Assembly: GCA_028706105.1 (NCBI GenBank)
Contig: JAQWCF010000002.1
Location: 1-56,061, forward strand
Origin: Candidatus Margulisiibacteriota bacterium
GTDB lineage: Bacteria; Margulisbacteria; Riflemargulisbacteria; GWF2-35-9; DYQY01
Length of the DNA: 56,061 nt
Reading direction: 5' to 3'
Shown: positions 3,307 through 36,245 of the stretch, in pieces
How positions within the stretch are numbered: the stretch's first letter is position 1
How the letters are laid out: each line of letters begins with the position of its first letter
Notes under the pieces: generated by a model
What the model was told of the DNA's origin: nothing
Databases searched by the model: none
The model's input: only the letters and a program-made list of their open reading frames with translations
Translations under genes and position numbers: made by a program

Positions 3307-3312
3307 TTCAGT

Positions 3313-4407
<1,095 letters not shown>

Positions 4408-9068: not shown

Positions 9069-9635
9069 TTATTTGGTTTGTTCTAAAGTAGTTATTCTCT
9101 TACTGTTATGCAATATCTTGAGTGAATTAAGGTCTGTTTGAGCTCTTTGTTCTTCTAATTTTTTTCTGAAAGCCACAAAATGTTCGTCTTGGAAGAATAG
9201 TTTATCTCTGACTGCTTGAAATTCACCCATATATTTTTCCATTACCAAGTTTACAGCATTATGAACAATAGTATTAGCGTCATCTTTTGTTAACATGTTA
9301 TCCATTATAAATTGGATATTGTCATTGGTGTCATCAAAATTGTAGTCCATTTTATCCAGTCTTTTTTTAACGTGAGACATGTCTTCCTTTAGGATAGAAA
9401 CATCTTCTTTGATCACAGCGACATCTGTTTTAAGTACAGCGACATCTGTTTTAAGTACAGCGACATCTGTTTTAAGTATAGCAACATCTGTTTTAAGTAT
9501 AGCAACATCTGTTTTAAGAGTAGAATTATCATTTTCAAGATAAGACACACTTGTTTTAAGACATGAAAAGTCTTTAGAAGTTTCTTCTTTTACAATGGTT
9601 CTTATCGTTGCTATGTCGTTGGTAGTTAATGTCAT
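9069..9635 (-). CDS. coiled-coil protein with tandem heptad repeats (LKTDVAx)n
   Basis: 188 aa. The repeat block reads TLKTDVAILKTDVAILKTDVAVLKTDVAVLKTDVAVIKEDVSILKEDMSHVKK. I recognise no family. Confidence 0.7.
   Translation of the reverse strand: MTLTTNDIATIRTIVKEETSKDFSCLKTSVSYLENDNSTLKTDVAILKTDVAILKTDVAVLKTDVAVLKTDVAVIKEDVSILKEDMSHVKKRLDKMDYNFDDTNDNIQFIMDNMLTKDDANTIVHNAVNLVMEKYMGEFQAVRDKLFFQDEHFVAFRKKLEEQRAQTDLNSLKILHNSKRITTLEQTK
9377..9525. repeat. in-frame 21-bp tandem repeat, about 7 units (5 near-identical at 9421-9525)
   Basis: The unit is acatctgttttaagtacagcg, with copies at 9421, 9442, 9463, 9484 and 9505. Degenerate copies lie at 9377-9420. Confidence 0.9.
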
Positions 9636-13700: not shown

Positions 13701-14018
13701 ATTACAGAATTACCACAAGAATTTGCTAGTTTCTTAAATGCTTCTGCTTCTGTTGTATTCCATACAGCGGTTGGGTTGCTTTCTAGCAAATGGTTTATGG
13801 CTTTATTAACAGAGACAGCAACTTCAAGTGTAGAGGATAAAGCAAAGGTCATTAAATTTTTAGATGGGTTAACTCAACCAAACGGTCCTAATTTTATTAA
13901 TATTTCAGGTATTAAAGACAAAATTTCAGCTATTCAGGAGATAAGTAAGGATGCAAATATAGGTGATTCAGATGGGGGAAATAACAATCCCAGTCCGAGC
14001 CTACTAGTAACAAGCTAG
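10755..14018 (+). CDS. large hypothetical protein (1087 aa), Ala/Pro-rich linkers, no signal peptide
   Basis: ORF track. It is the only long ORF in this region. It has low-complexity tracts (PPAVKPDAPAAVKPEASPEISP; ARQAGATGGAAGTTGDTKEPPADA). I recognise no family. Confidence 0.75.
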   Translation: MTSVEGAPKFYFKQVAKGFDATTSGALRAVPISAAKISALLNDTFNPSVQLNENLVGQLEGISVISASSLVGPSESVLDRLLDGVSQIQGDSHFTKDGLEAVKEALNIWLTASDDTSKATALETLQGFLKDGGKVGAKDVWVIDAVSSDALPSGIISYAELIMFQKELKMDVSTPPAVKPDAPAAVKPEASPEISPDDEKVLISVLSLQDFVMRAKNPSDAKALDKLPLDKLPSQIRQLFTGNEDISDTAKVAMLRMLALAGYFGESTDYEGESKGVFKEGGQDVSISWAGGTAFRTEFFKPIEGHELPHVDRNSLIKAITAMCRSFESVKMRGSTVNFEKFSKDFISASAYSITRRSTNSAAAADHLARQFSSGGHAVTADQMTSLANNFAMVTLPLSPTAPFRLFGPGVQLVLKGEELKISVQGDNNVFYEVVSFKKADWDKFLTFMTQKNPPPNEKEKELLFLNILEMLAQGDLNEMTIYRDEDVKETEDINLVETQAKATALKAALASVKGVATSQELYDGLNREGVNPASLMYWDAGNPAVAANDKANPPVLAKAAIPPSWKSVFTGNAIAGYALATSFNAGTNYQFSIEGYTPTGEKTTKTESYKFELPQTFTNAINASTAPPLAARQAGATGGAAGTTGDTKEPPADASGRLTLRESNAPLFPGMKVKIADLVGGEVGAYNFDGSTSYSILNGETELTIPANATKLTFAKTKKDETDSSITTIDDSSPIVSIEVKSADAIAPKSMLSSALGTPENVAIYLNGQIKQITPINIAEIIPAAMRKLYNAGKLVKETPAVLALVLGKIDYANTDVATSFVNALNGLSPDDLVKVFIALDYANGVEALKTLVANFIANMDSGKRNELIKKISDTWSVDDFYDIGKRLIDIVDKAVFVEGLLTDNHDFSKVAYLMKGICGEEYNNMVIAKLNENIEAKGLLALIRVGGLGDNLQPNILKNKQLYNPEFLGSASGRLVLKKLITELPQEFASFLNASASVVFHTAVGLLSSKWFMALLTETATSSVEDKAKVIKFLDGLTQPNGPNFINISGIKDKISAIQEISKDANIGDSDGGNNNPSPSLLVTS

Positions 14019-14136: not shown

Positions 14137-17100
14137 ATGGGATTTGGTGATGGTAACATTGGCGCTTTTGGAGGTTATGGTTCTTCAAGAACTAGCATTC
14201 CTGCTGTATCTTCTATTCCAGAAGTTAAGAAAGTAAAAGTTAATCAAGAACAAGAACTTTCTGCGTTATCCGCTAATGTTGTTTTTCCAATAGATAAGAG
14301 AGGGAACTTGGTTGTTCCTCAAGAATTAAAACAGTTAATTGCTCAAGGCAGAGATTTAGCTGTGATGGTTACCTTTAATGATGATAGTCAACAAAGATTA
14401 GTGATTGGTGAAAGTAACAAAGATTTACTATTTCAGCTAGACTCAAAGGATATATTTGCAATTCAAGTTGGAATTGTGTCAGGTAAAGGGGATACAACTT
14501 CCCCTAGTATAGAGTTTGGATATATGCCAGAAGACCTTATCAGGTTAAGAGAAAATATTGTTATAACAATCAATGAAAAGAATGAAATTAAGTGGCCAAC
14601 ACTCAAGAGTGTCGAAGATAAGGATTATTCTTTTAAGGTTGGAAATGTAGAAGTAGATAAGTCAAAAGTTTTTAACTATGATACGAATAATCCAATATAT
14701 TTAATTGTAAAAAGACAAGGGTTAGTTTTTTCATTTAAACTTAAGTTAGAAAGAAAGATTGCAGAAACTGCTGCTACTAAAAAAATACAATCAGCTGACA
14801 CAATATTTACTGAAGCAGTAAGTCCTATTTCAGAACAAGTAACAATCAAAGGTGTAACTATTAATGAGAACAAAGCTGTAATGCCTACCTTAGATGCTGC
14901 TGATAGTAAGGTTAAGGCACTTGAGGAGAATGGATACAATCTGTATTGGAAATATTCAAACGAAAACGGGACAAAGTATTTGCCTTTTTCAGAAGGAAGC
15001 ATCGCCTTAGCTGATGGGTATTATGATCAAGGAAATATTTCTTTATACATAGGAAAGAGTTCTATTAAAAAATCAGAAATTAACAATGAGTTGTTAGTCT
15101 ATAGTGAAACGAGGTTAGATGTACAAGCTGTTGTTGCTTTGAAAAGTAAAGTTGATGAGATATGGAGCTTTTTAATTGACCAAGGGATTCTTGAGAAGAC
15201 TGATAGCCCCGAAGGTTCTGCAAATATTCTAGTTTCAACAGATGAGATAGAACAAATTCTTATTAATTCTAGTTTTGATTACAACACAAAGGTAATTCTT
15301 TTTCAATTATTAACAAAGAGTATTAACATTGATTTAAAAGTTGACTTGGATATGTATGTTTCAAAAGATGTTGATTTTAGTACACCGATACCAACGCTAG
15401 ATGTGGCAAAAATTGAAATTAATAGAGAAGGTAACGCAAGTTTTGGACTTCTTGTTAAGGAAGGCAAGGTATCAGTTTCTTTATCTTTCCAACAAAAAGA
15501 TCTTGCAATTAAACTTGGGTGCAAAGAAAGTGATTTGCAAAAGTTATTTATGAAGGCTCAAGAAAATGGGTATGTCGATGCTTTAACAGGTGGATTAGTA
15601 ATTACAAGTGATAATTTAATGCAAATAAAAGAATTAATAGAAGATGTTAATTTAAAAGAGAATTGGGATATTTTATTTTCAAGCGTTGAGTTACCAATGG
15701 ACATACAAATTAGTTCTAAATCATCTGCATATGAACGGAAGAGTGTTCAGTTTTTTATTGGAAATCAATTAAATCTTAAAAAGGGAGAGATTTTAGTTTC
15801 TTGGACAAATGGTGTCGATAGCTTGACTTTAGCTCCTGAAGTTTCGAATCAACTTATTGAGGTGGAGCGTGTAGTTGGAGTTAATGAAAACAGAGTTCTC
15901 GCTCCAGAGATAGAAGGTTTATTAGGAGAAGTTGATATGTTTTATGCAGTAGAAGGAAACGGTATTTCCAGTTTCAGTAGGATAAACCAATATGGTCAAT
16001 CCTTGAATGAATTGGCTATTGATTATTTATTAGAAAATGAAGCAACAGTAAACAGGATAAGACAAGCAATTATTGACAACAAACCAATTGAAAATAAAGA
16101 TAAAGTTTTTATTTATGATTTGTTGTTTTTTGGCTTTAATAAAAGCAGATTAATTAATGATTCTATGTTTAGTTTTGAAGATAGTAAAAGTGTTGACCAA
16201 ATGTCAATTTCAGGAATGTTTTTAAGGGTTGAAGTTTTAAACGTTTTGTTTGGTAAGCAATTCGCGTATTTAAAAGATTTTTCTGATGTTTTTAAGATGG
16301 TTTTTAATCAGCAGGAATATAAAGCAATAGCCTATCAAAGAACAAATATAGATACAAGTTCCCTTGAAGTTTTGAAGCAACCAACGGATGTTCAATCTAG
16401 CGGTGACAGTAGGGCAGTTCAGCAATCTAATGAAGATAATTATGTTTATTTTGTTGAAAAAATTGAAAATTTTGAGAATCTTTTCGAGGCATATGTGGCA
16501 CCAAGAAATCAACAAATGGAAGAGATACAACAAATGCTGCATATGTATAATCCAGCATTTGCTGATATTAATGGACAAAAAGGTATAAGAAGCGATGAGA
16601 TGAGATATTTGGCAAATTTGTTTAGCGAGGAAACTGCCTCAGCTCAGGAGATGGTTGGTTTGTTTCAAAATAATCAGCAAATGATTATTCAATTGTATAA
16701 CCAATATCCAGAAGTTAGGAAAATTATAGATGATGCAAAATTACAAGCATTTGTTGATCCATTAACTATATCATTGTTGATTAAAGGGCAAGGCGAGTCT
16801 TTAAATACTAGCGGTATAAAAAATGAACAGTTTATAAAACAGGCATCTGCTATAAATCTTGGTATTACAAAGGCAGATGGTACTCCACTAACGCTTTATG
16901 ACTTATTGGTTGTTGGTAATCAGTTATTAACTGGAATATCTGGAACGCTTATTAAAGAATCTTTTAAATATGAAAATAATAGTCAGTTAAAGGCCTATAG
17001 CATTCTAAATAGTAGGGCTGTTTTTGGTTATTCAATAAGCCAGGTGTATCAGTCTTTAGAACAAAAGTTGCTAAGCAAACTAAGAGGTTCAAATGAGTCT

Positions 17101-20100
17101 TTAATTGAAATATTCTCAGGCACAAAGTTGTATCAATTTTTAGTGGATGAGTTTAATAAAGATAGTCAGGGAATAGCAACAGTTGAAGAGTATTGTTTGA
17201 GTTATATTCAGAAGAAATTTGAGGCTAAATATTCAGAGATTGAAAGTTATTTAAAAGACGGAAAAGGAGATGGTTCTGCTATACAGATGTTAATTGAACA
17301 TTTTGCTGGTAGTGCTATAGATAGAAAGGTTTTAGGTCAAATTAAAGATGTTAAAATTGTTCCTAATCAATTATCAAAAAGTAATTATAGTGTTAACCCT
17401 GATAAATTAAATGAGCCTAAATATAGAGCTGCAATTCTGAATTTGGTATATCAAACACAAGTAAATAAAACTCAGGGTCATGGGTTTAGGCAAACAACAA
17501 ATGTTTTTAATCAGATCAATATTTATCAACTTAAAGAGATAATAAATATTATTTCTTCAGATGAAGATTTTTCTGAACTTATAAAGCCATTAAAAGAATT
17601 AGTTGCTACTTTAGAGAATACTGGTTGTGTTCTGATAAAGAGTGTAGCTAGTGGGTTTGAATATTATAAAGCTGATGGTTCTTTTGTTACAGTTGCGGCA
17701 ACACCGTTAATTGAATTAGTTAAAGGATTGGTTGATAGAAATATTTTGCAGGGCGTAGTGGAAACATCCAAGACTTTTACAGCTAAATTACAAAAATCAT
17801 TAGCAGCTGATAGAGATATTAAGGTGCAAACAAAGGTTATTAGTTTTGATAAGCAGTTTAATATTGATAGTTGGACAAGGATAAGGTTGCTGTATTTAAA
17901 GCAAACAAATATAGAAGCATATAATAATATAGTAGCTGCTTTAGCCAAAGTAGAAGATAACGATTTAAGTGATCCTAATGTTTTACGTTATTTGAGTTCC
18001 GTTTATATGAATCCTACTTTCTTGTTGTCTCAGAATAAGCCTGTACCAAGCGAAAATTTATTTATGCTTGATGCTGATTTTGCTCTTTGGCTAATAGATG
18101 TAATTCAAAGTGATAGTTCTGCTTTTTTGGGAGCAGATTTAATAGTTGACTTAGTTTTTGGGAGGAGGCAGACATTTACTCCTGATAAGAAAACTGTGTT
18201 GAATTATTCGCAGGGAGATATAGGGGAAGCCTTAACTGAAATCAGAAACAAGATTTTGGAAGGAAAAATTACTTTTAAAAATAACGAAACGATGCTTCTT
18301 GATGGTGACAGTCCTGAAATGAAAAAATTGAAAACATTAATGGCTGTATGGATTCATGGTGTAGATAATAACGCTATTCAGAAACTAGTTGATTTGAAAG
18401 ATTCTACTGCTGAACCACAAGTGGCTGATTTGCAGGATGCAAATAATTTATTTGGCTCATCAGCTGTGTCCTTTATTAATCAATACTTTGGACCAGTTCC
18501 AAGTTTGGGTAGTTGGTTAACATCAGGAGCATCAAAGGTTGCTGGTTTGCCAGAAGTGGGGATACTTACTTCAAATATTAAAGATGCATTTTCTGGTCTT
18601 ATTACAAATTCTGCATATAATAGCGACCGCTTAAAGAGCGAGGTGATTTATCATAATTTAATTTTATCAAATAATGAAATGAGTGATGAGTATGTTGATG
18701 TTTTTATTAATGGACTAAGAAGTTATATTAATCAAACATACTTTCATCCTTCAAGTGAGCTATCAAAAAAGGAAATAGAGGAATTACTGCAAGGGTGGGA
18801 ATCTCTGAAAGATGTTGAGCCTAAAGGAAACTATGTTATCACTCAGGAAAACTGCAAAAGTAATTTAAAGTATTTATATATTTTAAAATTAGCTGCGGTG
18901 GCATCATTTTTAACAATGAATGATGGACTTGGTCGTTCTCAGGAATTAGTTTTAGTTGATGGATACATGACAGGAGCGGAAAAGAAAGAGCCAGTTAGTG
19001 ATGGTGGCGGGTCTGCACTAGGTGGTTTAGCTTGGGATTTATTGAAAGGAAATAACCCAGCGTTTGTTTTTAGTGAAGGATATCAGTATGTAAGCGCAGT
19101 ATCTGAAGAGAAAAAAAAGGAAGGTCATGTAGCTTTAGGGGTAGGTGTTGGTGATGCTACTTTAAATTATGTTAGAACCCCTCTTGAGTTTATGAAGTTG
19201 AGTTGGTATTTTAAGTTTTCAAGACCTTTAGATATTTGGAAAAGTGTTATTTCTCAGGTGTCAGGAGAAAATAATGTTTTACATCAAAAAGAAATAGCAT
19301 CTCAAGTTGCATTGGTTACTGCACAGATAGATATAATACGGGATTTGCAGAAATATGGTGAATCGTATGGGTTAAGTGTTGCAGTAATAGGTGATGTAAC
19401 TAAATCTATTGTTGGTATGGAGAATGTTATTAAAACTATTAGAAATCTAACTTCTTTAAAAGATATTGAAAAGAAAAAGTTAGAAATTTTTGTTTTACTT
19501 TCTATGTATATTAATGAAGCAGGTGTTGCAAATAAAGATAGTTTGAAAACAGAATTGTTTGAGCAATTTAAAGGCATAAAAGAAATAACTGTATTGGATA
19601 GATATATAAAAGTAGTTAGCAAATTAATAATTATGAAAAAAGATGGACTTAGTTTAGATGATAGTAGTTATCTTTCAATGCTTAAAAATAGCGATGGGTT
19701 GTTGGTTTTAGAAGAAAAAATAAAAGAAAAATACCAAAAAAGTAGATGGGATTATTTAGAAGGAGCTTCGTTTGGAGGATATGAGGCTGATCATAGTCTT
19801 GGTGCTTTTCAATCTTTGGATGAAGACATTGATGACTTGATGGGGACTGTTTGGAAAAGGGTTGCTGACACTGCAGTTGAAGTAGCTACCATTCAGTTAG
19901 ATATTTATAATTTCACACATAGCTTCTATCAATTCTATCAGTACTTAGGCATATGGGAAGACATGTCAAACGCAGCTACCCCTAGTGATTGGGCTGCAGT
20001 TTGGATAAAGATTAATTTGGCTAATATGTATGTTTTGCCAAAGTCAGGACAAAAATTTAGTGATAGCTGGATGGGCAGGACAGTTGGCAGAGATGTAATT

Positions 20101-23100
20101 TTATGGAAGCCTGTTGGTTGGGTTGCTGATTCTGCAAAATTCCTTGGAGCCGATAGGATGAAAGGATTGCAATGGTTGTTTAAAGGCATTGATATGCTTA
20201 ACGAACAGGGTGCGTTATTAACATTAATGGAAGCAACCGGAGTTTCTGGCAAAGCGTCAGATAAGTGGGAGAATCTAACAAAAAAAGATGGTCAATATAA
20301 GTCAGGATATTTAGCACTGAGAGCCTTAGTCGATGTGGTAGGAACAATGAGTATTGTGGGAAATCGTGATTATGAAAAAGCACAGGTAACTGACCTGACA
20401 GACATGAGTAAATTCAGAGCAGCTAGATTAATATTTAATGGTAGTGTATTAAGAAGTTTGGGTGATACGGTTTTTAGTAAAGGAATAGATAGGCTTAATG
20501 CAAATGTCGTTTTGTATGCCCTAGATAAGTGGAAGCAAGAATTTATTGGCAATTACCCAAATGGCAAATTTAGGGACTATGTGAAGCAAATTTTTCATGA
20601 GTGTGCTGGGGATCCTGCTGTTGCAAGATATTTTGAAAGAATGAGTTATGATAGTTTTCAGGCAGAAACAGAGAAGTCTGTCACCGAAGTAACCATCAAA
20701 GCTGATGGTTCATTATCTTTTTATTGTGTATCTCCAGATGCTAAAAGAAATATTGATTTATCTAAATTGCAGGAAACATTAAAATTTAATGGTGTTTTGG
20801 ATGGAATTTCTGTTAAGAGTGTTTCTGAGGATGGAACAAGTATCAATCCAAAAGAAGTTAATATAGGTAAAATTATTATTGGGTCATCAATGGCAAATGA
20901 AAATAATGCTGTTTTTGTTTTAAGAAGCGATAATCCTTCGTTTAGTAAAGATAATTTAGAATTACATCTTTCAGTTGACTTGGCACGTGGATTAACATCA
21001 GGGGCTTCTTCATCTATGGCCTTTGAAAGATGTTTGAATGAGATAAAGTCTCGACCACTTCAGTTGGATGCAGGATTTAAAAGAAGTATTGCTAATTTTG
21101 GGACTGATGGAAATAGTGTTTCTAAAATGCAAGACTTTTATACGCTTGTAACAAACGATACTCTTATTGTAATAAATGAGGATGTTTTTAAGGCACTTAA
21201 CGGAAAGTTCTCTTTTCAAGAACTTTCAGTGTTTTTTAGGCTTATTAAAGAGCAACCAAATAATTGGAAAATGAATATTGATTCGGTCAATAATTATTTA
21301 GAGCAAGTTAGGTTTAGAGATGTTGTGCCTCCTGATTTTAGAAAGGCAGCTGATATAATTTTTGGTAAAGCAGAACAATTAGCAAGAGTTTTTTTAGAAC
21401 ATTCTGGAGGAATAAGAGGTTCTGTTTTTGATGAAAAATTTAATGAATTTTGGAAAAACAATGCTGAAGTTAAGTCAGCATTGGCATCGATTGGTAGTGA
21501 TTTAGATTCCTATCACGTTGATGGCGAAAAAAGAGAACGGCTAGAATCTTTCATCTCCGAAAAATCAAGAGACTATGCTAAAGGTGTTGTTCTTGCGAGA
21601 CAGTCACATGAAGACTTATGGTCTTTTATTGAGGGACAGAAAGCTTCCCTGAAGGAGAATGGAAATAGTGTTCTAAATCAGTTATTAGATAGTTGTAGAA
21701 ATATAGATGACTTTTATAAAGCTTGTAGTATTGGTGTAGAAGGGAAAGATTCGCGTAATAATCCTGACGCATATAAGGCAGCTCTTCAAATAATAATTGA
21801 TGCCCAAAGGGAAGATTGTGAAACAGCTTTTAATGCAGTAAAAGGAGCGAATGATGAAGAGGCAAAGAAGGCAGCAAAAGGGCAACCTCACAATAAAAGA
21901 GCAAGTATTGATGAATTCCAAAAAGCAAATGCTGATGGGAAACTAACTAGTAAGGTTTTGGGTATGTGGACTCTTTCTGTATTGAAGTCAGAAGGGTTTC
22001 GACCTATTGAAGGATCATTAGCAACATTAGCAATGCAAGCAAACAGTAAAGATATGTTTTTTAATATGAATGCTGGCGGAGGCAAGACTATTTTGATAAC
22101 AGGACTGGTCTTATTCCGTTATATGATGGGGTATCATGTGGTTGTAGGCGTTTCTAATGATGCAGATAAATCAGCTGGTGTTAAATCAACAACGAGAGTT
22201 TATGAAACTATGTTTGGTAAGCCTCCAGCTGTATATGAACGACCAATAGGAGCATATAATCCTGAGACGTTACGGGCTATGTTTGCAAAAAGTAGAGTGG
22301 TTTATGTGAACCATTCAGATTTTCTTTCTAGAGCATTGCAAGACATTATTAATCCAACAGAGAGAATTTTGCCAACCGATTCAAGCGATTCGATGGTGTA
22401 TATATTAGATGAAGCAGACAAAAATTTGTTAATAGATGGAACGAATCCTACCATTATGAGTACTTCAAATAATGAGATATTAAAAGGTATTGATAAGGAC
22501 CAGTATGTTGTGGCGGTAAGGGTAATGGATGCTTTTATTAAAAACAATGCTAAGAAAGAAGGCGAATTAGTTTTTAGAGTAGGAGACCAATTTTTTCTAA
22601 CAGAAAAGGGCACATTAGAATTTAAAAGAATGTTAGCTATTGATATTTTAAAAGTAAGTATGTCAAAAATCGTATTCTCTGATAATTTACCATCAGTTAG
22701 AGAAATTCAATCTAGAATAGATAAAATAAAGCTAGCAAGTAATGCCAGAGAAATAAGTTTACAGCTTAATTCTAGTGAAAACTTAATGTATGAGCGAGTG
22801 GCATTTATGGCAAACGATGTTTTAGACGTAACTAAAACTTTTATTTGTGGTGAACAGTATGATGTTGTTAAAGGGAAGGTGAAATTGTTAGACCAAGGAA
22901 TGAGAAGGTTTAATTGGAGTAGTGTACAACAGAAATATCATCAAATAGTAGAAGCATATCATTTGAGTGGATCTGGTCCGAGACGTAATGATGGTTCTAT
23001 TTCTCATATTTCAAGACCATCCTTTAGTAGTATAAGTTTAACCACACAGAAATTTCAGAAAGATGTTATTAATGCAATATTGGGTTTGTCAGGAACCAAT

Positions 23101-26100
23101 TTGGAGATGCATAGAGAGATAGAACGATTAATGATAGAACATATCCCTGCAAAGGACATTGCACCACAGACGCTTAAGTTCGCTCCGCAGATTTCGGTAA
23201 ATGGATTAGAAGCACAAAAACAGAATGTACTTTTTTTAGCTGCTAGCAAGATGGCAGAAGGAGCTCCTATTTTACTCCATATACCAAAGAAAAAGTCAGG
23301 AAAGTCAGGATTGGAGGCGGAACTAACCATACAAGTGTTTGAAGAGTATACTAAAGATTTTTTTGATTTTTTAGATAAGAAAATTAAGGATAATAATTAT
23401 TCGGACAAACAATTTGATGCTATTTATCAAAGATTAGGAGGTGGTGAGTATTTAGTTAAATATCAAGCCATTTTAGATTTTAATGCTTTAGTTGGTCGTT
23501 TTTTCGGATCCACTAAGTCAAGTTCAGGAATAGGCATTGATCATGTTTTTGAAGGAACAGCAGATGATCTTGAAAAACAAAGAATAGATTATTTTGGGGA
23601 TGGAACAATTAGGGTATTAATGAGTACAAATAGTAACAGGGCTGTTGATATCCAACCTACCTCTGAGTTTTTTAAAGAATCTTGGAAGAAAATGATTAGT
23701 GATAAAGCAAAGCCAGAAGCCAAAAAGAGACTTGAGGCATTGGCTAAGTATCTAAACATTGGGGTAGACGAATTAAAAGGATATAAGGCACATGATGCTC
23801 TTATACTATTGCGACGCAAATCTGGATATTCCAATATTGGCATGGTTGGTGTAATGACACAACTGAAAAGAGACAGTGTTGAATGGATACAAGAGATTTT
23901 TCGTTTAGGCCGAACACTAGGTTTAGGTAGGTCAGAAGGAGCAGTTTATGGCGTTACTAATATTTGGGATAATAATCTTTCAAAAAGACCTGAATTACAA
24001 GCATTAGTTCGAGATAATTGTTTTACTGAGGAGGGCATTTCAGCCTTAATGGATGTTCCTTTTTATCCTCTTAATTCTATGTTGCAGATAGATAATATAG
24101 GCAAGTATCTTGTGGCTATTCCAGAGGATAAAGAGGCGATAGATGCTATTACTAAATTTGCGTATGGTATATTAAAAGAATTTCATGATTTAAGTTTAAA
24201 ATCAGACTTGTCGGCGGTTGAAAAGAAACGGTTAAGCCAAATAAAGTCAAATTATCGCGGGCTTGTGTCTTTAACTAAGAATATACCTGAGTTGTTTGCA
24301 AAAAGAGAATACAGTTTACCTGGAAATTTAGCGGATATTACAGATGAAGGTTTAAGAATAGCAATTTCTGTTGGTATTTTCCGCGACATGACGGGTAACG
24401 AAGTAGGTTCGATTTGTTCTGAACTAGCAAAGAGCCATAACCCATCTAAGGGCAAGGAGTCTATAGATTGGAAAGCAGCAGAAGGCAGAATCTATAATTA
24501 TCGAGTAGCTACTGACCTAGTGTTAGTCGGGATTATTAAACAAAACGACGTTTCAGATTTTATTAAGGATGGCTTTGAGAATAATAAGTTTATTCATCTA
24601 AAACAAAGTGTTTCTATGTTTAATAAAGTTAGAGGTTCTTTAGAAAAAACTAATCGTGATAACATGGAGTCTTCAAAAGCTTCTCAAGGTAAAACATTAG
24701 AAAGGCAATCACCACTAAGATTGCTACAAGATCTTCTTGGTAAGTCTCAAGGTGATGGTAAACGTAGTTTTCGTTTGGGTTATAGGGCAACTGATATTGA
24801 ATATATTTCACGAGATTTTTCACAATTAAATCAAGTTAAGGATATCCCAACAATGTTGACAATGTTTTTTGAAAGAGCATTAGAAGTAAATTCAAAACAG
24901 TTTTGTGTATCACAGGGGATTAGCTCGTTAGATGAATTAATGGTTAAGATGATTACTAACAAATCAGTAAGAAGAAAGTATGAAAGTTATATTAATAGCA
25001 AAATGGGATTTAATGTTGAATATGTTAGTGGTGTTAGAGAGTGGGATATTTTTAAGTCAGGAGTATCAAAGAGTTTTTATGGTTTAGCATCAGACCCTAA
25101 AATGCCAAAAGATAGACAAGCAGCAGCAGCAACTCTTATTTCCCAACGTTTAGCATTAGTTAACGTTTATCTTTCTGAGGCAGAAAAGTATATTGAGCAT
25201 TTGACAGCTACTACGATGGTTATTGGCTCTGATGTCAATTATGAAAGTTTGTGGCAGAGCATGCAAGAAGGATTAATAGACAAAATGGCGATTGATATGT
25301 TTTCTGATGGTAGTAGGCCAAAAACCATCCTTAAAAAAACAGTAAAAAACGTAGCTGATTTCTTTTATTTTAAGTTTATTTATGATGTAGATTTAAAGGT
25401 GGAAAAACATAGGGCTGAACACCAGGAAGCGATAAATGAGGTTAATTATAAAAGCTGGAATAGACTTTCTGATACATTATTTGGATGGAAAGCATCTCGC
25501 GCATTAAAGGGGAATGATAATTATAAAAATAATCCAGAAGAAAAAGTACAATATCAGTTAAAAAATTTAATTCTTAGATGTAATAGGGAAAATAGAGACC
25601 CTTCTGATGATGAATTAAAACTTATTTTTGGTGAAAAGTTTAGTATAAGTGCTAATTATCTTCAGGCAAATGATTTTGGTGCAATAATGCCGCAAGACGT
25701 GTTAGCCAAGTTTGGTTTAAATCGAATAGTCAACTCTCAAGCAATAGCATTGTTTTTTGAACAATTTACGATAACATCTCAGGGATATTATTGGATAGAT
25801 GCTGAAAAGGTTAATGATTTTATTGCTTGGTTGGATAATTCAAAAACCGTTAAAGATGCAGAAACTATAAAGAAGTTTGAAACATTAGCTAATCTTCTTC
25901 TCCAAAAGAAACCAGTTAAGAGTAAAGGAGTGCCAGAAGGTACTTATATAGAATTAAGCGCAACTGACAAAAAATCATTACAAATTAAATTGGGAGAAAT
26001 AAGAGATAATCAACCAGATGCTTTAAAAGTCGAATATGAATATTTAAGACAAGAGGGGTACATCGATGCTCAGGGAAGAATCCTAAAGGGAACTGAGGTT

Positions 26101-29100
26101 ATAAGTAAAGATGAAAACATTACAGCAGCAACAAGGAACAAATTAACTACTGCTGTTGAAAAAATTACATCTACAATAAATCAAATAAATCAAAAGCTTA
26201 TTTCAGATGGTAATCCATCCGGAAAAAGTATTTTAATATATGATGGGTCTTATAAGTTTGCAGAAGTTATATCAGTAGATGAACAGAAAGATCATAGGGT
26301 TATTAGAATTGGTAGAGTTTGGGGTGGAGGGCAAACAGATTATTTGGGGTTAATTTATCATAAGCAAGGTAATAGATTTGCCTTTGGAAGCGAAACAAGC
26401 TCAAAGTACGAGATTATTGTTGCAGAGAGTAAGCTACAGGAAAGTTTTATGGACCTTTTTGAAAAGGCGATTTCTCAGAAAAGTGACAATAACGGTGATC
26501 ATGCAAGGATGTTTTTGCAGTCTATTGATATATCAATAGAAAAAATGAAAGGCTTAACGGGGTTTCCTTCTTTTTTTAATTATAAGGTTCTTGGTCAGAG
26601 GTTAGGGATAAAAAGTGAAGATGAACAAATAAAAAAATATCAGGACTGGAGAAGGTTGGGGTATGTCGATAGTAATGGGAAGTTAACAGAGAAGTTTATG
26701 TATTTGACAAAAGAAGATCTCTCTACGGAACAAGAGAGAGAGTTTCAGTCTAAGGCATTAACATTGTTTGATTTGTCAGGGAAAGCATTACAAATGCTTT
26801 CTGAATTTGTAAGAATACATGAAACCAGCCATATGCGTGACTTTAAAGATAATATGCTTGCAGACATGCCAGAAGGTATAAGGAAAGATCCTTTTGTTGA
26901 TATGTTGTTAGAATTTAGTGCTGATTTTGGTAAAGATGGAATCATTGAAAAAATAATAGCTATGGATGGAAATAGAGCTCAATCAAAAGCTATTTTTCAG
27001 TATTTGCTTTTTAGATTATCAGCTTCCCAAGACCCTACTGATAAAGAAATGTATCAAGTATTAAAGAGTTGTGTGGGAAGTAAAGGAGAGCTTGATATCC
27101 CTAAATTAAATACATTATCAAAGAGAATAACCAAGCACGTTAACAGTACTTTTGAAGCGTTAAAACAAAATAGTAGTGAGTATAACCTGGCTAATTCTGT
27201 TAGAGATCAACAATCTCGTTTTAGTGTTTTTCTAGGGGAAATATCATTTGTCAAAAAATCTGAAGTATCTGGTGCTGACAGTAAATCTCCTGAAGGCGTA
27301 TCCTACATGAAAGCAACAGCTTTGCCAGAAAAGGGTACACCTGCGCAAAGAAACCAATCTGACACTCAGCCAGATGCTACTAAATATAAAGATGTGGAGT
27401 ATATATCAACGCCTCATACTGAAGGCGATTACAAGCGAGCTGTTCTTGCAATTTCAGATTTGGGCCAAGAGAATCCAAATCAGGTTTTTGAGGTTAAGAG
27501 CTCAACAAAAGTTCAGATAATATTTACTGCTGAAGATGCAAAAACAGTGCAAACAGAAAGATTAGTTATCGAAGGTTTTGGTGATGAGCTTGGTAAGGCT
27601 ATTGCAACAGGAAGACAAGATTTAAGCAAAAAGCAACAAATGAATCTATATTCGTATATTTTACAACAAATTAGAAACACAACTGAACTTTCAGATGAGT
27701 CTGCTAAACAACAAGCAAATTCTATGTTGAAAAGTTCTTTAGATAGTATTCAGCCGGGATTAGGTGACAAGTTTGAGAAAGCATATCCTTCTTTTAAAAA
27801 TTGTTTTGATGCTTATTCAAGGATTATTAGTGCAACCCAACAGCAGCTGGACAACGGGAGTGATAAACAAAAGGTTAATCTTAGGAAATCTCCAAGTGGT
27901 GTTGTGATTTCTATGGTTGATAGGGCTATCAATGACAGCAACGCAACAAAAGATGGTGGCAGTTTAACTAGCGAACAACCTTTTTATGTTATTAGAGGGT
28001 CATCCGCAGAAGTTATAGTTAGGATGGGTTTAATGCCTATGTTTTTTGGTGGAGAAAAGTATGCTGGTAAAGTAGGTAGTGTTGAGTTCCAGCATCAGTC
28101 TTGGGGTGCGAATGCTACTTATCAGGACGAACAGCTGTTAATGAGAATGGAAGATGAAGATGCTTTATCCTTAAAGGGTAAGGGGTTTGGTCTAATGATG
28201 TTTGCAGCTGACGCAGTTGATGAGGGGCAGTTGGCAGGTAAGCCAATGGGCTTTTCTGCTGTTATACAAAAAGATAATAATGGGAAAATGCACTTTTTAG
28301 ATGGACAGATAGTCTCTAAATTACAAGATGATATTTATTCAAAAGTACGTGGTGGATCTGCCACATCGATTACAGATGAGTTAATAGAGAAAGCTGTTAA
28401 AGATACTAATATCCCTAAAGAGCAAAAGAGTGCCTATTATGAGTTTATGAAGACAACATTAGATAGAGATGTTGTTTTTGTTAGACGTGCTTTTGATGAG
28501 CTTGGATGGGTTATGACTGAGGACATGATGAAAAATTATTTTAGTTCAAGAGGTGACAGTTTAGGTGATATTTTTAGAAATGACGGGACAATGGATCCTC
28601 AGAAGTTAAAAGAACATGCAGAAGGTTTAAAAAACACTTTGCTTGCTGGGATGACAGAAAGTCAAAAAAGCAAATTAAAGGGTCAAGGATTAACTATTAA
28701 TCAACAGCTTGAAAGAATGCTTTATCCTGGTGAACGTTCAAGTAGAATAGCAACAGATGTTTTAGAGAATAGTACTCAATTTCTAATGGTACTGGCTGTA
28801 GCCGCAGTAATACAATTTACTAATGCAAAAATGAAAAATGAAAAATTTGATATAGAGTCTGTAGTAAATTTGGCTTTTAATGAATTAACAGTTACTGCTG
28901 CTTTAATGAAAAGAATGATGATAGAACGAGGTCTTGGAGTTTTGTACCATGGAGAAGGTGTGACTTCCATGACGATATCTGTAATGGTTTCTAGACTTGA
29001 TACTTATTGTAGGGCCAGGACAGAAGCAATTCATCAAATGGCAGAGTTTAATTTTGTAAGACAAACAGAAAGAGAACAACAGAACAGCTTTAATGATTTG

Positions 29101-32100
29101 TTGAACACTAATGTTGAACAAGAAGTAGCTTCTGTGCAAGTCGTAGGCAGTGATGTGCAGAGTAACTTAGGTATTTCTTTTACCTACAAAGATAATGTGC
29201 TATCAGGGGAAGGCGTAAATCAGTTATTACAAAACTTACAGTATCCTGGTGATTATTTTATAACCGATAGCACTTTCGATGTGTTAAATAACTTATCTTT
29301 TAAGGCACTAGCTGTAGAGTATTTTAAAAATACTGGATGCTTGGTTTTGGGCCCAATGAGTGGTGGTTCTGACGTTAAATATTTTGTTTCAGAAAAATTT
29401 ATAAATATGATGAATTATCACCCTGATGAAATTATGTCTGGGTTGGTGAAATTAATGAAAGATTTTGTAGTAGGTATGGATAAAGAAAAAACTATTATAA
29501 AAATTAAAGAGTTGGGCGTGGATGTTGAAGCTATGGGTTTGCAAGATAAGAACGAAACAGAGTTGCGTCAACTATTAGTACAAATCTTGGTTTCATCTAT
29601 AGTTCGTAAAATGAAAGGATCCTTTGATGTAAGATATGCCTTAAAAGAACAACTAAAGAGAGTTTGGGTGGAGAGTATTATTCGTGATGGGTACATTAAA
29701 GAATATAAGTTAGCTGATAGCGACATTACGGAAAAAGGTCAATATAAACCGTCTTTTCTTCAGGAGATGCATTCTGTTTTAGAGAGCAAGGGTCAAGATC
29801 TTTTGAGTAGCATGCTTAGTGACGTCAAGAAAGAGTATCCAGATTTTGACTCGATACAGTCTCATTATTTTAGTAGTTTAGTTCTTTTATATGATGAAAG
29901 GGATATGCAAATATTTAATGAGTTTCTTCTTCAGAATAAGATTGAATTAACCTCGGAACAATTGGATAAGTTGAAAATCATTAAAGATTCTTATTCAGAC
30001 TTAATGTCTAAATTAGGGACTATTTTGAAAAGTTATAAAAACAAGAACTGGGATAATCGGGAAATGGATATGTTGTTGTTTGAAATTGACCAAGCATTAG
30101 TGTCAACATTTCCAAAACTTAGTGAGTTTATAAAGTTTGCTGATTTGGTGGAGTTAACTAGGGCTGAATTATTGAGAGATAGAATGGTAAGTGTTGATTT
30201 TAATAAAGCGTTCCCTTATTTGTCAGTTAATAGTAACGAGTTTTCTGCGTTAACAGTTAAATATGTTAATGATGCTTTAAATAAATCTATAACAGAAAAC
30301 AGAGTTGGTGTTTCTGATGTTTATAGCTTTATGTTTTCTGATAATGATAAATTAAAACCTAATTATTCTGTTATTTTTGAAGCTATTGAAGTAGACGGGA
30401 AAATGTGTTTTAAGCTGAAGGACGGAGTAGATGAAAAGAAACTTAATAAGTTTTTGCAGGAACAACAAAACAATTTTTTTGACTCAAGACAGTTTGTTTT
30501 ATTACGAGATTTAGCCATCACTTCTTTATCTGTAAGTAATTTAGAAAAAGTACAAACAATTCTTCAAGGAACAGAAAAGGATTACGAGTCTTATTCTAAA
30601 GTTCTATATAATAATAAAGATTTATTGGGAGATGTTTTTGGGTTTTATTCAACGGAAGATCTTTTTGTTAGTCAGTTTAAGTTTGAAGTTGCAGGGGATA
30701 AGGCTTCAAAGGGATTGATGGAAAACACTAAAGCTAAGGATGGGATGCCAGCCCCAAAAAGACATTTGATTGTTTTTAGAGAACAAGTTTCTGATTATGC
30801 AAATGACAATAAAATTCCTTTACTAGAACAAGCAGAGGCTGGAAATCCAGGTCTTGGTACTGCGAAGGGAACAGCCGGAGGCATTATAGGTCTTGCAACA
30901 TTTAAATATGCTCATGGATTCCTTGAAGGACGTGCGATTAGAAAATGGGGTCAATATGATAAAGCAAATTATAATAATAAGTTTACTAGGATTTTCAATA
31001 AAGAAGGTCTTAGAATGCCAAAAATATGTGGGCATACGGCTAAAACACATTTTGCTCCAATGGGACTTGCTTCTTTGGCATATATTATGGTGAGTCAACA
31101 TTTTTTTAACATAGCCTATGAAAAAAGTGGTGCTGTTAGATTTGTTGTTGATAACTCTATCGATCCATTTTATGAATCTCTCGCTCCACTAAAATTTTTG
31201 ACGCCAAGTATTTGGCTTAGGTATCTTAATGATGCTCAACGTAATTGGTCAGGTTTTGACCCTATTGGGTTTTCAGGTTTAAAGAGTTCAGATTCCTCAT
31301 TTAATAGGACGGTTGGCACTGTTGGTAGTTTGGCTGTGGATGTTGGGTTAATGAAATTGGATGTGGAAATGGCGAAACTTGTTCACAGAAGAGCTGTGAA
31401 AGCTGGATGGGCTCAGGCGCCTCTTGACGCGGATAATTTACTGACACCTTATCAACGAGCAATAAATGAAGGAGCTGAAGATTTAATTAGTCGTAGAGGA
31501 GTTATGATTAATAATTCCGACCTTAGTAAGGTTAAGTTAGCTAGAGTTCCAAGGGGAGTGAAGTCAGTAGTAGATTCTTTAAGTCCGCATTGTCAAAGCA
31601 TAAGTTCTATCGAAGGTTCAGATGACCTATTAGTAAAACTTAAGGACGGTAAAATGCAAAGGCTTACCTATAAACAAGCGGAGAAGTTATCAGCGGATTT
31701 ATCAAGAAGAGCAACAGGTCTTTCAGTGACAATGAATGCAAGGGATATTGTCAGAGAAGCTTCTTCAGGGATTTTTCTTGATTTTAAACCTTTAGCTGGG
31801 GATATGGTTGAATTTACTACTGTAGGTGGTAAGAAGTTAGTTGTTGGTAAGGCATCTATGGACCAAGCACTTAAAGACGGAAAGGGTGATTTGTATAAGT
31901 TTTTGTTTACTGATGATGCAACTGGGCAATTTAAAATAAGAGGTAATAGGCTAATGCAGATTTATGCTGCATTATCTGTAGTAAATATTCTTATTAATGG
32001 CGCGCGTGATGGTATCAGTATGGATGATGTTGCTCAGGCGTTAGTGACTGCTGGCAAACAGACAGGTTCCGTTGCGGCAATTGGTTTACTTGAGGGTGTA

Positions 32101-35100
32101 GCAACTAACGCCGGAGTGATTAATTTAACTATTAGAGGGGCTGTTGTTAAGATTCCACTAGCTGGACCTTACGCAGCTGCCGCTTATGAGTGTTTGAGTG
32201 TGTTAATTGAAAATTGGGATGAAGTTAAATCAGGAGGAATTTCTTCCAGTATAGCTATTGAGGAGGCGGTTGAAAAGGCTCTTGTGGTTGGTGGAGCGGT
32301 GTTCGTTGGAACAGTTACTGCTAAGGCAGTTTCTGTTGTGATTGCTTCAATGTTAGCAGAAACGAGTGCTGGTGCTGCCGTGTCGGGCGCACTACCGGTT
32401 GCTCTTTTGACAGTTGCAACAGCTGCTCTTGTATATTATGCACCAAAAGCTTATGACTGGGGAATTGAAACAACAGGTATAAGAGAAGACAGGGACGAGG
32501 TTAGAATGTTAGCCAATTTCTCAAAGGAGGCAGGTGTTACATTGGAAATAACTAATTCTAATGTTCATTCGTGGGGACCTTTTTATTGGAGTAATTTTTT
32601 TCAGGACACAAAAAATGGATATTATGATAATGAAAACCTACAAGAGTTAATGGAGAATATATATCCTGGGTATTCTTCATTAAAAGCTTCCCTTGGGCGC
32701 GATAATCCTGCTTTTGTTATAGAGAATGGCTCTGGGCCTACAAGAAGGGCTCCTAGTATTTTTGGTAAATTACATGAGTATAGCAACTTAGCTTATGAAT
32801 TAAATATTAGTGTTAATAGTCTTTACGATATGAATCCGAATTTATTTATTCATATTTGTCAAACTTTAGAACAGAATAAAGATAAGATTAAAGGGAAGAT
32901 GGTTAATGTTTCCATTGAGAGGGTGGGTTATCAAGATCAACCTGATTTTATGGTTAATTATGTAGTTAAGTTAACGATAGATTATCCTAAGGATGAAATT
33001 AGATTAACAATGGGGGCTCAGGAAAAACCGACAGAGATTATTTCTCCATGTTCAATAAGATTACATGGTAAAGGTATTAGTTTATCTGAAGGGATTAATG
33101 TTTTTTCCGCAGTAAACACTGGCAAGCTAGTTGTTGATGGACAGGTTGTGGATTCATTGAAGGTTGTGTCAACAGATAGAACTTGGAAGGATACTCTTAT
33201 TGATGAAGGATTGGGTCGATTTTTACTGGAAACATTTATTGTGAAAGGTGATATTAATTATGAAGGATTAAAATATAATTCTGAATCACAAGGTTATGAG
33301 GAGTGGTCAAATCAAATTCTTAAAGATAATAAAGCATTAATTGCTGGTATGGTACAAAAATATCTTGTAACAGGCGAATTGCCTATAAATGATCCAAAAT
33401 ATAAAAACATTATAATTGCAATAGCTACAGAAATTCTAGAAGAGGATATAAAAAGAAATCAAAACAAAGCAGATTCAGCTTTGTTGAGGTTAACTCAAGC
33501 CCAAAGGAATAAAGCTTTGTATGAATGGAGAACGTTAGATTCTGAAGGCAAGAGGATTTCCTCTCTTAGTGATTTGAGTGGCAAAGAACGGACTGGTTAT
33601 TTAGATTTTTTAAAAGCATATAGATATTTGAGTTTAGGGTTTATTAATCCAGAAGCAATAGCAACAATTGTTGGTTGTGATATTCAAGAAGCAAAGTTGA
33701 TTGTTAGTGTGCTTAAGCAGTCCGAGGTTCTTAAAGGTATTGATAATAATCAAAATGATCTCTATAGAATTGATTATAAAAAAATAACCTTAGGTGAAGA
33801 TGAGCTAAAAGAATTTATTGATGTTTTGAAGAATAGTATTACAGACGAAACATTTATTGGTTTTGGTGTAGATGTAAAAAATGAGAATATTTTAAGGATA
33901 GCTGCAGGTATCGAAACAGTAATAAATTCAGCACTTAGTTTGTCAGAATATGTTTATTTTACTAGACAGCCTCGTGATCGTATTCGTAAAAAAGAATTTG
34001 CTTTAAGTGGTGATGATTTTAGAAATATTTATATGCTTTATAAGAATGGGGCTTTTAATAAAAGAGATTCTGGTTTTCTTCAGTTTCATCCTGGCGAATA
34101 TACCATTGTTAATAAGCCAACCCACTTAAGGCAAGTTTTCCCTTTTGATTTATTGTCCACTAATTTTTTTGCCGATAATCTTAGTGTAAGCGAAAGGCTA
34201 ATGCGTCATTCGAAGAGTTTTAATCAATCCAAGTTTTATAAATATGTGTATGATAATTATGGGAGTTTGCAGGCTAATGACTATGATAAGTATATGAGGG
34301 CTAGAGGGTTTATTAGTATTAGTAATGACTCCGAAGTTCGTAGTGCAACATTAGACTATTTAATGGTTGCAAATTATATTACCAATGAATCTTCACATTT
34401 TTTTGAATCACAGGCTAGATTGGATTATAAGAAAACTTATGCCTTTAGGTGCTTGCCTGATGAACAAATCGCTGAGTCAATAAAAGAATTAGATATTACT
34501 GCTAGGGAGGATATTGAAGATGCTTTTAGGCTTTGGCAATACGATAGTTTTTTTCAAGAACATAAAGACAGTGTGCTTTTTAAAGTAGATATGAGTCCAT
34601 CTGCTTTGTTTATAAGGAATGATTATCAGAGCAAGAAGCAATTAAATATTAGTTTGTTTATTTTCAGAGTGATAAGAGGTGATTTTTCGCAGTCACAACT
34701 GAGTAGGATTGTTGCAAGCAGAGGGAAATTTGATCAAATTTTAAAGCAAATATCTATGAGTGACATCAAAAAATTAAACCTAATCTTTACAAAGCTTAGT
34801 GACCCAAACCTTGCATCTATTGATAGGATGAATGCTTTAGATTATATAATGGAGAATAGTAAGGCTATTAAAGAGTTATACGATTTTATGTTTGACAATG
34901 GTTCTTTGTATTATGGCTGGGAGAATGTAGCATTGGTTGAGAATACTGGTTATGATTCAATAGAGAAGTCAGCAGGGGATGATGTTAAAGATTTCCAGAA
35001 TTTTATTAAGACGATAGCTTTGTTTAAAGGAGTAGCTGGCATTCCTTCTTTGTATTCTAGGAGTAAATTTAGAACATATAATTTTAACTGGATGAATAAT

Positions 35101-35867: not shown

Positions 35868-36245
35868 ATGCCAGTAGAAAATAATATGAAAGTAACAACC
35901 CCAGCGAAGTTTGATAGTACAAAAATGGAAAAGGTAGCCCCTTCTCCAGCTCAATTAGAGAATCTTACTGCACAAAAGGTAGGACTTGGTAACAGCCTTA
36001 AAAGTATGGCGACAGTTGGTCCACAGCTAGGCGAAGATGGCGTAGAACTTGCGGCAATTGTTAATGGTGGGGCAGTAAAAGTAGCATCTACAGCTGTTAA
36101 AAAAGAAGCAGGACAAACAATCGTTTTTGATAAAGCAGCGGCTCCAGCAGAAATTGCGGCAACTGATCCAGCAGATAAAGCAGCAGATGCATCAAAATTA
36201 GATTCAAAAGCTGTTAAGCCAGGAGAAGTAGAACAAGCAGATTAA
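35868..36245 (+). CDS. small Ala/Lys/Pro-rich, probably disordered protein (125 aa)
   Basis: ORF track. A canonical SD (ataGGAGGaaataaaATG) precedes it and a strong hairpin follows it. I recognise no family. Confidence 0.65.
   Translation: MPVENNMKVTTPAKFDSTKMEKVAPSPAQLENLTAQKVGLGNSLKSMATVGPQLGEDGVELAAIVNGGAVKVASTAVKKEAGQTIVFDKAAAPAEIAATDPADKAADASKLDSKAVKPGEVEQAD

Follow-up and report, generated by a model that had tools for sequence, protein, structure and literature searches.

A SecA-derived ATPase module inside a giant protein of Margulisbacteria

The 56,061-nt stretch of chromosomal DNA analysed here (positions 1 to 56,061 of contig JAQWCF010000002.1, assembly GCA_028706105.1; hereafter the window) comes from a metagenome-assembled genome (MAG) of an uncultured Candidatus Margulisbacteria bacterium and contains a giant open reading frame (ORF) that encodes 7185 aa with no internal stop. 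An exact look-up identifies the product as MDD4526477.1 (hypothetical protein, locus tag PHF25_00395), which is the sole member of its 90%-identity cluster. A preliminary description of this DNA, drawn from the letters of the sequence, had proposed that a complete SecA-type motor is embedded in the giant protein. Profile comparison and structure prediction place a SecA-derived ATPase module at aa 2620-3340, the resemblance of which to SecA goes far beyond chance. The giant gene and the parts of the module, that is, the nucleotide-binding domains NBD1 and NBD2 and a preprotein-binding (PPXD)-like insert, with their motifs, are as follows.

14137..35694, forward strand: giant ORF of 7185 aa, host of the SecA-derived module
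21994..24156, forward strand: SecA-derived ATPase module, whole (aa 2620-3340), delimited by the profile A1, hhalign, Foldseek and conservation
21994..22470, forward strand: first part of NBD1 (aa 2620-2778), aligned to residues ~83-230 of Escherichia coli SecA; predicted local distance difference test (pLDDT) score ~80 in the model
22072..22089, forward strand: Walker A, AGGGKT (aa 2646-2651), in the context NMNAGGGKT, where SecA has EMRTGEGKT
22408..22419, forward strand: Walker B, DEAD (aa 2758-2761), followed by KNLLIDGTNPTIMS; aligned to SecA DEVD 209-212
22471..23022, forward strand: PPXD-like insert in NBD1 (aa ~2779-2962), aligned to SecA ~231-372
23023..23166, forward strand: second part of NBD1 with motif III LSGT, aligned to SecA GMTGT 389-393 and VVVPTN
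23167..24066, forward strand: NBD2-like second RecA domain (aa ~3011-3310), with two helical insertions
23623..23649, forward strand: motif V-like STNSNRAVD (aa 3163-3171), with S, N, R, A and V invariant
23890..23931, forward strand: motif VI-like QEIFRLGRTLGLGR (aa 3252-3265), of the form QxxxRxGR

The SecA-derived module and its family

Giant homologues of 4459-6992 aa that are collinear with the window protein are found in other Margulisbacteria and Marinamargulisbacteria MAGs (related loci are denoted here L001 to L009). When the module is compared exhaustively with 1.84 billion representative proteins by phmmer, only six credible homologues emerge, three of them giant proteins (5313, 6683 and 6304 aa) and the rest fragments; a seventh match, a spurious repeat protein, was discarded. 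Every homologue of known source either belongs to Margulisbacteria or is encoded on a contig that is syntenic with the window. The giant-protein family was seen here only in records and MAGs of Margulisbacteria and Marinamargulisbacteria, and this type of SecA-carrying giant protein is apparently restricted to Margulisbacteria. For orthologous giant genes, precomputed SecA_DEAD matches are already on record. The syntenic orthologue from a close relative, in locus L001 (1-5247; GCA_964643725.1), consists of 6970 aa and shows ~25% identity to the window protein in a single alignable stretch of its C-terminal 1748 aa, whereas the aspartyl-tRNA synthetases (AspRS) encoded a few kb downstream in the two loci belong to the same 90%-identity cluster; by this comparison, the giant gene evolves very fast relative to the nearby AspRS gene.

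Taken alone, the window copy of the module matches the Pfam family SecA_DEAD with borderline scores (E-values of 7.7e-5 to 2e-5, 22.5-24.4 bits, aa ~2637-2805; the Pfam cut-off is 24.6 bits), no other Pfam family matches this segment, and a single-sequence phmmer search of the PDB with aa 2501-3400 detects no SecA. Two matches from the latter search, the Legionella glucosyltransferase Lgt1 (E = 0.27) and plantacyanin, are insignificant and were discarded as noise. A profile built from the seven family members, that is, the window module and its six homologues (profile A1), retrieves 13 PDB sequences at E <= 7e-6, all of which are SecA or SecA2; the best match is to residues 82-451 of E. coli SecA, with an E-value of 2.4e-20, so that the region for which kinship to SecA had been claimed, aa 2600-3300, indeed yields a significant SecA match. 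An hhalign comparison of A1 with E. coli SecA (a reference sequence identical to PDB 6s0k_h except for one engineered residue) gives a probability of 99% and an E-value of 3e-18 over SecA residues 83-456, with ~19% identity.

The aligned stretch runs from NBD1 through the preprotein-binding insert and motif III to the first strand of NBD2. The window/SecA pairings include PIEGSL/HFDVQL, NMNAGGGKT/EMRTGEGKT and HVVVGVSND/VHVVTVNDY and, in the later part, LSGT/MTGT, IEHIPAKD/VVVPTN and GAPILLHI/GQPVLVGT; in addition, LDEADKNLLIDGTNPTIMS is paired with the Walker B-side stretch of SecA, SecA NLTERG is also paired, and QYDVVKGKVKLLD...HQIVEAYH is paired with its counterpart stretch in SecA. The motif pairings in SecA order that the preliminary description had read by eye are therefore recovered by hhalign through LSGT/GMTGT and IEHIPAKD/VVVPTN. 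Profile A1 separately matches 5k94, a chimera that contains only the PPXD of SecA, with an E-value of 7e-9. Among the seven family members, Pfam SecA_DEAD is detected in four (best E-value 5.7e-13) and SecA_PP_bind in three (best E-value 6e-6), the window copy alone being unmatched by the latter model; the Pfam check proposed in the preliminary description thus holds for SecA_DEAD, in a borderline manner for the window and clearly for the family, and for SecA_PP_bind in the three members and not in the window copy. Because the profile matches in the PDB, the hhalign alignment, the match to 5k94 and the Pfam matches of the family agree, an NBD1 with the SecA-specific insert is established by sequence comparison.

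All nine quoted motif strings are located in the 7185-aa ORF where they had been placed, with one start off by a single residue: NMNAGGGKTIL occupies aa 2643-2653 (the earlier start was 2644). The others are GFRPIEGSLATLAM at aa 2620 (nt 21994), HVVVGVSNDADKSAG at aa 2667, YILDEADKNLLIDGTNPTIMS at aa 2755 (with DEAD at aa 2758-2761, nt 22408-22419), a 13-residue string at aa 2813, EQYDVV...EAYH at aa 2906, ILGLSGT... at aa 2981, RVLMSTNSNRAVDI at aa 3159 and QEIFRLGRTLGLGRSEG at aa 3252. In Walker A, the N, A, G, G, K and T residues are invariant across the giant homologues; in Walker B, D and E are invariant and the pattern DExDKN..G.NP is conserved in the family. The PPXD-like insert contains FLTEKG and QYDVVKGKVKLLDQGMRR...HQIVEAYH, along with a window-specific insertion of ~45-60 aa. 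The SGT of motif III corresponds to aa 2985-2987 (nt 23089-23097), with S and T invariant in A1. Within the family, residues Q3252, E3253, R3256, L3257, R3259, T3260 and R3265 of the motif VI-like segment do not vary.

The assignment of NBD2 draws on different evidence. A profile of the C-terminal half alone (A2) matches neither SecA nor a helicase; hhalign aligns only the first strand of NBD2 (GAPILLHI with SecA GQPVLVGT 449-456), and the comparison of the motif V-VI region with SecA is not significant (E = 0.25). Without significance, hhalign sets STNSNRAVD on SecA ATNMAGRGTD, which makes R3168 a candidate counterpart of E. coli SecA R509; the pairing of the motif VI-like segment with SecA QLRGRSGR comes from the pattern and a predicted helix. 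AlphaFold2 started with the seven-sequence alignment produces a model with a mean pLDDT of 60.9 and a predicted template modelling score (pTM) of 0.47 (a single-sequence AlphaFold prediction of the module has a pLDDT of 31.9). In this model, aa ~3020-3250 form alternating beta and alpha elements at pLDDT 80-90, a pattern that suggests a second RecA-like domain; the PPXD-like part is poorly modelled, with pLDDT ~30. In a Foldseek search of the PDB, the top 35 matches are all SecA or SecA2 (E-values of 3.8e-15 to 5.5e-8 over ~700-800 columns); DinG and eIF4A-type helicases rank after them, with E-values of 1.4e-7 and weaker. The TM-scores are low, 0.27-0.42, likely due to the unreliable domain arrangement and the poorly modelled PPXD-like part. 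Taken together, the predicted fold and the invariance of the motifs make the NBD2 assignment well supported but not proven. For motif V (STNSNRAVDI/ATNMAGRGTDI) and motif VI (QEIFRLGR/QLRGRSGR), the proposed pairings find support in the predicted fold and in invariance within the family, and none of statistical weight in sequence profiles. With NBD1, the PPXD-like insert and a second RecA-like domain, the module conforms to a SecA-type motor rather than to a generic superfamily 2 (SF2) ATPase.

The other parts of SecA were sought as well. The scaffold and the two-helix finger of SecA dock on SecY and push the translocating chain, and a zinc-binding C-terminal linker occurs in many but not all SecA proteins. 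No match to Pfam SecA_SW (scaffold/wing) is found in the window or in the family members; the helical scaffold domain, two-helix finger and wing domain are not detectable with Pfam, PDB profile searches or hhalign; the zinc-binding pattern CxCx8C[HC] occurs nowhere in the 7185 aa; and the module has no equivalent of the N-terminal region of SecA (residues 1-80). One conserved block follows the motor.

24484..25386, forward strand: conserved block after the motor (A3; aa ~3450-3750), with an invariant KDIP at aa 3568-3571

As a candidate for a hidden scaffold/wing domain, A3 was rejected: it has no PDB or Pfam match, and its hhalign comparison with SecA 580-836, which sets KDIPTL on the WDIPGL of the wing (EEMWDIPGLQ), is insignificant (E = 0.16, probability 0.4%). 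Given that the scaffold/wing, two-helix finger and zinc-finger tail are all undetectable, the module is a SecA-derived motor core and not a complete SecA, so that of the "complete" SecA-type motor described previously the motor core stands and these remaining parts do not.

An alignment of the seven giant proteins shows that the module is the peak of conservation, with a mean identity of 24-30% compared with 5-19% elsewhere, and it is also the strongest collinear BLAST block between the giants. At an overall identity of ~25-30%, the GKT of Walker A, the DE of Walker B, the S.T of motif III, the NRAV of motif V and the Q/R/R/R of motif VI are invariant; in particular, the Walker A, Walker B and arginine positions are conserved as they had been read. 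The retention of every phosphate-binding and catalytic residue in such a fast-evolving protein argues for an active ATPase, and the module probably is one.

Other conserved features of the giant protein and its neighbourhood

Outside the module, the giant protein is almost featureless to domain searches: SecA_DEAD is the only domain detected in the 7185 aa by Pfam, NCBIfam and phmmer against the PDB, phmmer finds no PDB match for either the N-terminal 2600 or the C-terminal 3845 residues, and neither internal repeats nor an N-terminal signal-like segment or signal peptide are found in the protein. NCBIfam and PADLOC give nothing for the module, the remaining giant protein or the neighbouring genes. 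Two further features are discernible.

26779..27006, forward strand: HExxH...E..ADF block (aa 4215-4290), with HETSH at aa 4228-4232 and EFSADF at aa 4259-4264
32278..32445, forward strand: hydrophobic, transmembrane-like cluster (aa 6048-6103) in a Kyte-Doolittle scan

In the first block, HETSH is followed ~27 residues later by E..ADF, and the H, E, H, E, A, D and F residues are invariant in the seven giants, which makes it the only invariant motif cluster of the giant protein besides the SecA-like motifs. Judging from the motif, this is a candidate zincin-type metallopeptidase site; the block has no PDB match, and Pfam detects nothing in the region. The second feature is the sole strongly hydrophobic cluster of the protein, with 2-3 candidate membrane helices ~1080 aa before the C-terminus; the motor lies ~2700 residues upstream of it. 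A cluster occurs at the equivalent place in most homologues (P0013, P0014, L004 and the L001 orthologue) and is weaker or displaced in P0012 and L003. It is a candidate membrane anchor by its hydropathy.

The giant gene is flanked by the following genes.

10755..14018, forward strand: upstream gene, 1087 aa, directly before the giant gene, with no domain matches
35868..36245, forward strand: small ORF of 125 aa, located between the giant and 561-aa genes
36315..38000, forward strand: downstream partner, 561 aa, with an invariant YHEV[SA]HD (HExxH) at aa 304-310
38004..39473, forward strand: downstream partner, 489 aa, with homologues in L001 and L002

In the Marinamargulisbacteria locus L004, a weak homologue of the 1087-aa gene (E = 1.5e-8) is located on the upstream side of the giant gene. 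The place of the 125-aa ORF is taken by small genes of 74-279 aa in L001, L006, L007 and L008, matched by position and size alone. The 561-aa protein belongs to a family of ten sequences with 38-81% identity, the genes of which adjoin a giant SecA_DEAD gene wherever the context is readable (L001, L005, L006/L007 and L008). This protein has no match in Pfam, PDB or PADLOC and no hydrophobic segment, and its HExxH region shows no significant similarity to the HExxH block of the giant protein (hhalign E = 0.039, probability 1.3%). The 489-aa protein, which has no significant domain match, is 44% identical to its L001 homologue over nearly the whole length and has a partial match in L002 (54%); in L006-L009, genes of 434-486 aa lie at this position, again matched by position and size alone. 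The giant gene and the 125-, 561- and 489-aa genes look like one same-strand unit, and no domain can be recognised in any of the three smaller products. A possible origin of the flanking genes as paralogues of parts of the giant protein was considered and rejected on comparison with it.

The rest of the window contains housekeeping genes, namely secD, secF, tgt, homoserine dehydrogenase, queC and aspS, as well as glycogen genes, yebC, holA, rmlD and a chemoreceptor gene. The G+C content is ~34% across the window, with no break at the giant gene, and neither a tRNA gene nor an Rfam family is found in it. The presence of secD and secF indicates that the Sec pathway exists in the organism; there is no canonical secA within the 56 kb. 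The glycogen genes form a GH57-based set that is split around the giant locus (5076-7448 on the reverse strand and 43457-47866 on the forward strand) and includes two GH57 genes, one with DUF3536 and the other a branching enzyme with BE_C, along with a DUF4912 gene and a glycogen synthase gene. On the reverse strand, a 188-aa ORF (9069-9635) consists in part of about six tandem heptads LKTDVA(I/V) and shows weak, sub-threshold Pfam matches to the Lpp leucine zipper; it is probably a coiled coil.

Relation to known SecA proteins and giant proteins

The module shares with canonical SecA (PDB 2fsf, 6gox, 6s0k) and SecA2 the order NBD1, PPXD insert, rest of NBD1 and, by predicted fold, NBD2, and with canonical SecA a series of SecA-specific signatures, namely Walker A M-x-x-G-x-GKT, motif Ia V.V.N-D, Walker B DE.D....D....P.I.S, the PPXD patterns LTE.G and Y.V.DG.V..D...R, and motif III. 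Canonical SecA is a free-standing protein of ~800-1000 aa that acts via SecYEG, whereas the module is internal to a 7185-aa ORF and has extra helical insertions in NBD2 and PPXD.

The closest parallels come from other giant proteins. Most full-length giant proteins of Omnitrophota, and some actinobacterial ones, contain divergent SecA_DEAD and preprotein-binding domains without scaffold or wing (bioRxiv 10.1101/2023.11.21.568195); the Omnitrophota modules form a separate long-branch clade, occur alongside a normal SecA and have been proposed to mediate self-export (bioRxiv 10.1101/2023.11.21.568195). Among the long Omnitrophota proteins, an architecture group of 20 proteins with PF07517 has been delineated (bioRxiv 10.64898/2026.06.07.730766), and Margulisbacteria are mentioned in this context only as rich in very large genes (bioRxiv 10.1101/2023.11.21.568195; PMC11573180). 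By the published description, the giants of Omnitrophota and Actinobacteriota resemble the window protein in having a mostly unannotatable host with SecA_DEAD and preprotein-binding domains and no scaffold or wing, a divergent, fast-evolving module, hydrophobic segments and candidate peptidase sites, and in the proposed export of giant or accessory proteins. There are also clear differences. The Omnitrophota giants reach 85,804 aa compared with ~5000-7200 aa for the Margulisbacteria proteins; in the Dockerin and Archaeovorin types the motor follows transmembrane anchors near the C-terminus, whereas here it is located mid-protein, ~2700 aa upstream of the hydrophobic cluster; "numerous" helices are described for Omnitrophota, whereas the hydropathy scan finds a single cluster here; and the glycosyl hydrolase, dockerin, C39 and other Omnitrophota-type domains are not detected in the window protein. 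Furthermore, the Margulisbacteria locus has different conserved partners and no type II secretion neighbourhood.

Giant actinobacterial toxins combine a SecA-like ATPase with MFS and metallopeptidase domains, and the ATPase is predicted to drive secretion of the toxin itself (PMC8195603). They resemble the window protein as giant multidomain proteins with a SecA-like ATPase, membrane-spanning segments and metallopeptidase-type domains, and differ in that their MFS, glycosyltransferase, ADP-ribosyltransferase and helix-turn-helix domains are undetected here, the metallopeptidase assignment in the window protein being one of motif only. Finally, secondary SecA_DEAD proteins that lack SecA_SW are encoded in loci related to type I secretion (PMC4452313). 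Like the module, these are non-housekeeping SecA_DEAD proteins in which SecA_SW is absent or nearly so, with a conserved locus and a suspected role as co-opted secretion-related ATPases. In contrast to the module, they are separate proteins (in Planctomycetes, Verrucomicrobia, Proteobacteria and others), for which no fusion into giant polypeptides is described. HlyD-type, Peptidase_M50 and GAF proteins are encoded in their loci; Pfam detects no such protein among the conserved neighbours of the giant gene (1087, 125, 561 and 489 aa), and these neighbours lack hydrophobic segments.

The architecture that the preliminary description called unusual is so when compared with housekeeping SecA, but it is no novelty, having been published for other giant proteins. 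Given the Omnitrophota and actinobacterial modules, the Margulisbacteria case belongs to a known kind: the fusion of SecA to giant proteins is already known, and what is new here is the phylum, the mid-protein position of the motor and the set of partners.

Possible role of the built-in motor

We put slightly better than even confidence in the possibility that the module is a built-in ATPase that handles or exports polypeptides at the membrane, separately from the housekeeping SecA. Under this hypothesis, the giant protein, lacking a signal peptide, would probably be anchored to the cytoplasmic membrane through its hydrophobic cluster (aa 6048-6103); the internal motor would hydrolyse ATP, and its retained clamp-type domain would grip and move polypeptide; the motor would thereby help membrane insertion or export of parts of the giant protein or of its partners, without replacing the housekeeping SecA; and the conserved HExxH sites of the giant protein and the 561-aa partner may process the product. 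A polypeptide rather than a nucleic acid is suggested as the substrate because the PPXD-specific part aligns to the PPXD-only construct. Membrane association is suggested by the hydrophobic cluster, which keeps its position in most homologues, and the conserved downstream partners on the same strand give the locus an operon-like context. The export component is further consistent, by analogy, with the published proposals for analogous modules (bioRxiv 10.1101/2023.11.21.568195, PMC8195603).

Several observations weigh against such a role. Given that the scaffold and the two-helix finger are undetectable, a SecA-like translocation cycle cannot be simply assumed. NBD2 after its first strand has no sequence-statistical support, and the structural model is of medium quality overall, with a poorly predicted PPXD-like part. 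At the site of the PFxxQ motif of the family (FDVQ in SecA), the window copy reads PIEGS and lacks the glutamine. The hydropathy scan is the sole source of the membrane topology; ~6000 of the 7185 residues have no recognisable domain, so that there is no independent sign of any extracytoplasmic part; and none of the conserved neighbours can be recognised as a channel or secretion gene.

The main rival, a possibility that we take seriously and consider doubtful, is that the motor was co-opted without any export role, for cytoplasmic remodelling, unfolding or conformational switching of proteins, such as the folding, assembly or regulation of the giant protein or its partners. The loss from view of the SecY-coupling parts (scaffold, two-helix finger and wing), the fact that neither the giant protein nor its conserved neighbours show a recognisable signal peptide, channel or secretion function, and the distance of ~2700 residues between the motor and the downstream hydrophobic cluster all fit this alternative, and SecA_DEAD proteins without SecA_SW have been treated as possibly co-opted ATPases (PMC4452313). 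However, most of the family keeps the hydrophobic cluster, the substrate clamp represented by the retained PPXD-like insert is otherwise known from the translocase only, and the authors who studied analogous giant proteins prefer export.

Three other explanations fare worse. It is very unlikely that the module is a catalytically dead relic, retained as a mere spacer within a giant protein of surface or scaffold type. The lost PFxxQ glutamine, the score of the window copy alone below the Pfam gathering threshold and the very fast evolution of the host (~25% identity to the syntenic orthologue) would fit such a relic, but the phosphate-binding and catalytic residues are invariant in seven homologues and the module is the conservation peak, the opposite of a decaying domain. 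More improbable still is a DEAD/DEAH nucleic-acid helicase or translocase with a superficial likeness to SecA: although Walker A, DEAD, the SAT-like SGT and QxxxRxGR are common to SF2 helicases, one family member has a weak Pfam DEAD match (E = 0.0021), and DinG and eIF4A-type helicases appear among the fold matches, all significant sequence matches are to SecA, the alignment crosses the SecA-specific insert, SecA_PP_bind is detected in family members, and the helicase fold matches, at 1.4e-7 or weaker, stand behind 35 SecA and SecA2 structures (best 3.8e-15). SecA is essential and strongly conserved in bacteria, and it is scarcely credible that the module is the organism's only SecA, a housekeeping translocase fused into the giant gene: the 56-kb window contains no canonical secA, yet the scaffold, two-helix finger and wing are missing and the identity of 19% to E. 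coli SecA falls far short of the values for housekeeping orthologues. In addition, the Omnitrophota giants with such modules co-occur with a normal SecA (bioRxiv 10.1101/2023.11.21.568195).

The hypothesis of a membrane-associated polypeptide-handling ATPase also has a stronger form, to which we give little credence: the SecA-derived motor without its SecY-docking scaffold, the membrane segment and internal HExxH site of the giant protein, and the 125-, 561- and 489-aa partners might constitute an independently evolved, self-contained export and processing machine that operates without SecYEG. If this were the case, the machine would represent a new mode of protein export, rather than a variant of Sec, which moves and cuts a polypeptide of several thousand residues.

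Nothing in these observations overturns the existing picture; both the fusion and the idea of self-export have been published previously. Few gene products are as poorly understood as giant bacterial proteins, in which Margulisbacteria are one of the richest phyla. The locus described here is a compact case, of ~7 kaa, in a phylum new to this kind of fusion, with invariant catalytic residues, a candidate anchor, two HExxH sites and partner genes. A built-in SecA-like motor recurs as the one recognisable, best-conserved element in several unrelated lineages of giant proteins and is thus the most promising handle on how polypeptides of 5,000-85,000 residues are made, placed or exported by cells.

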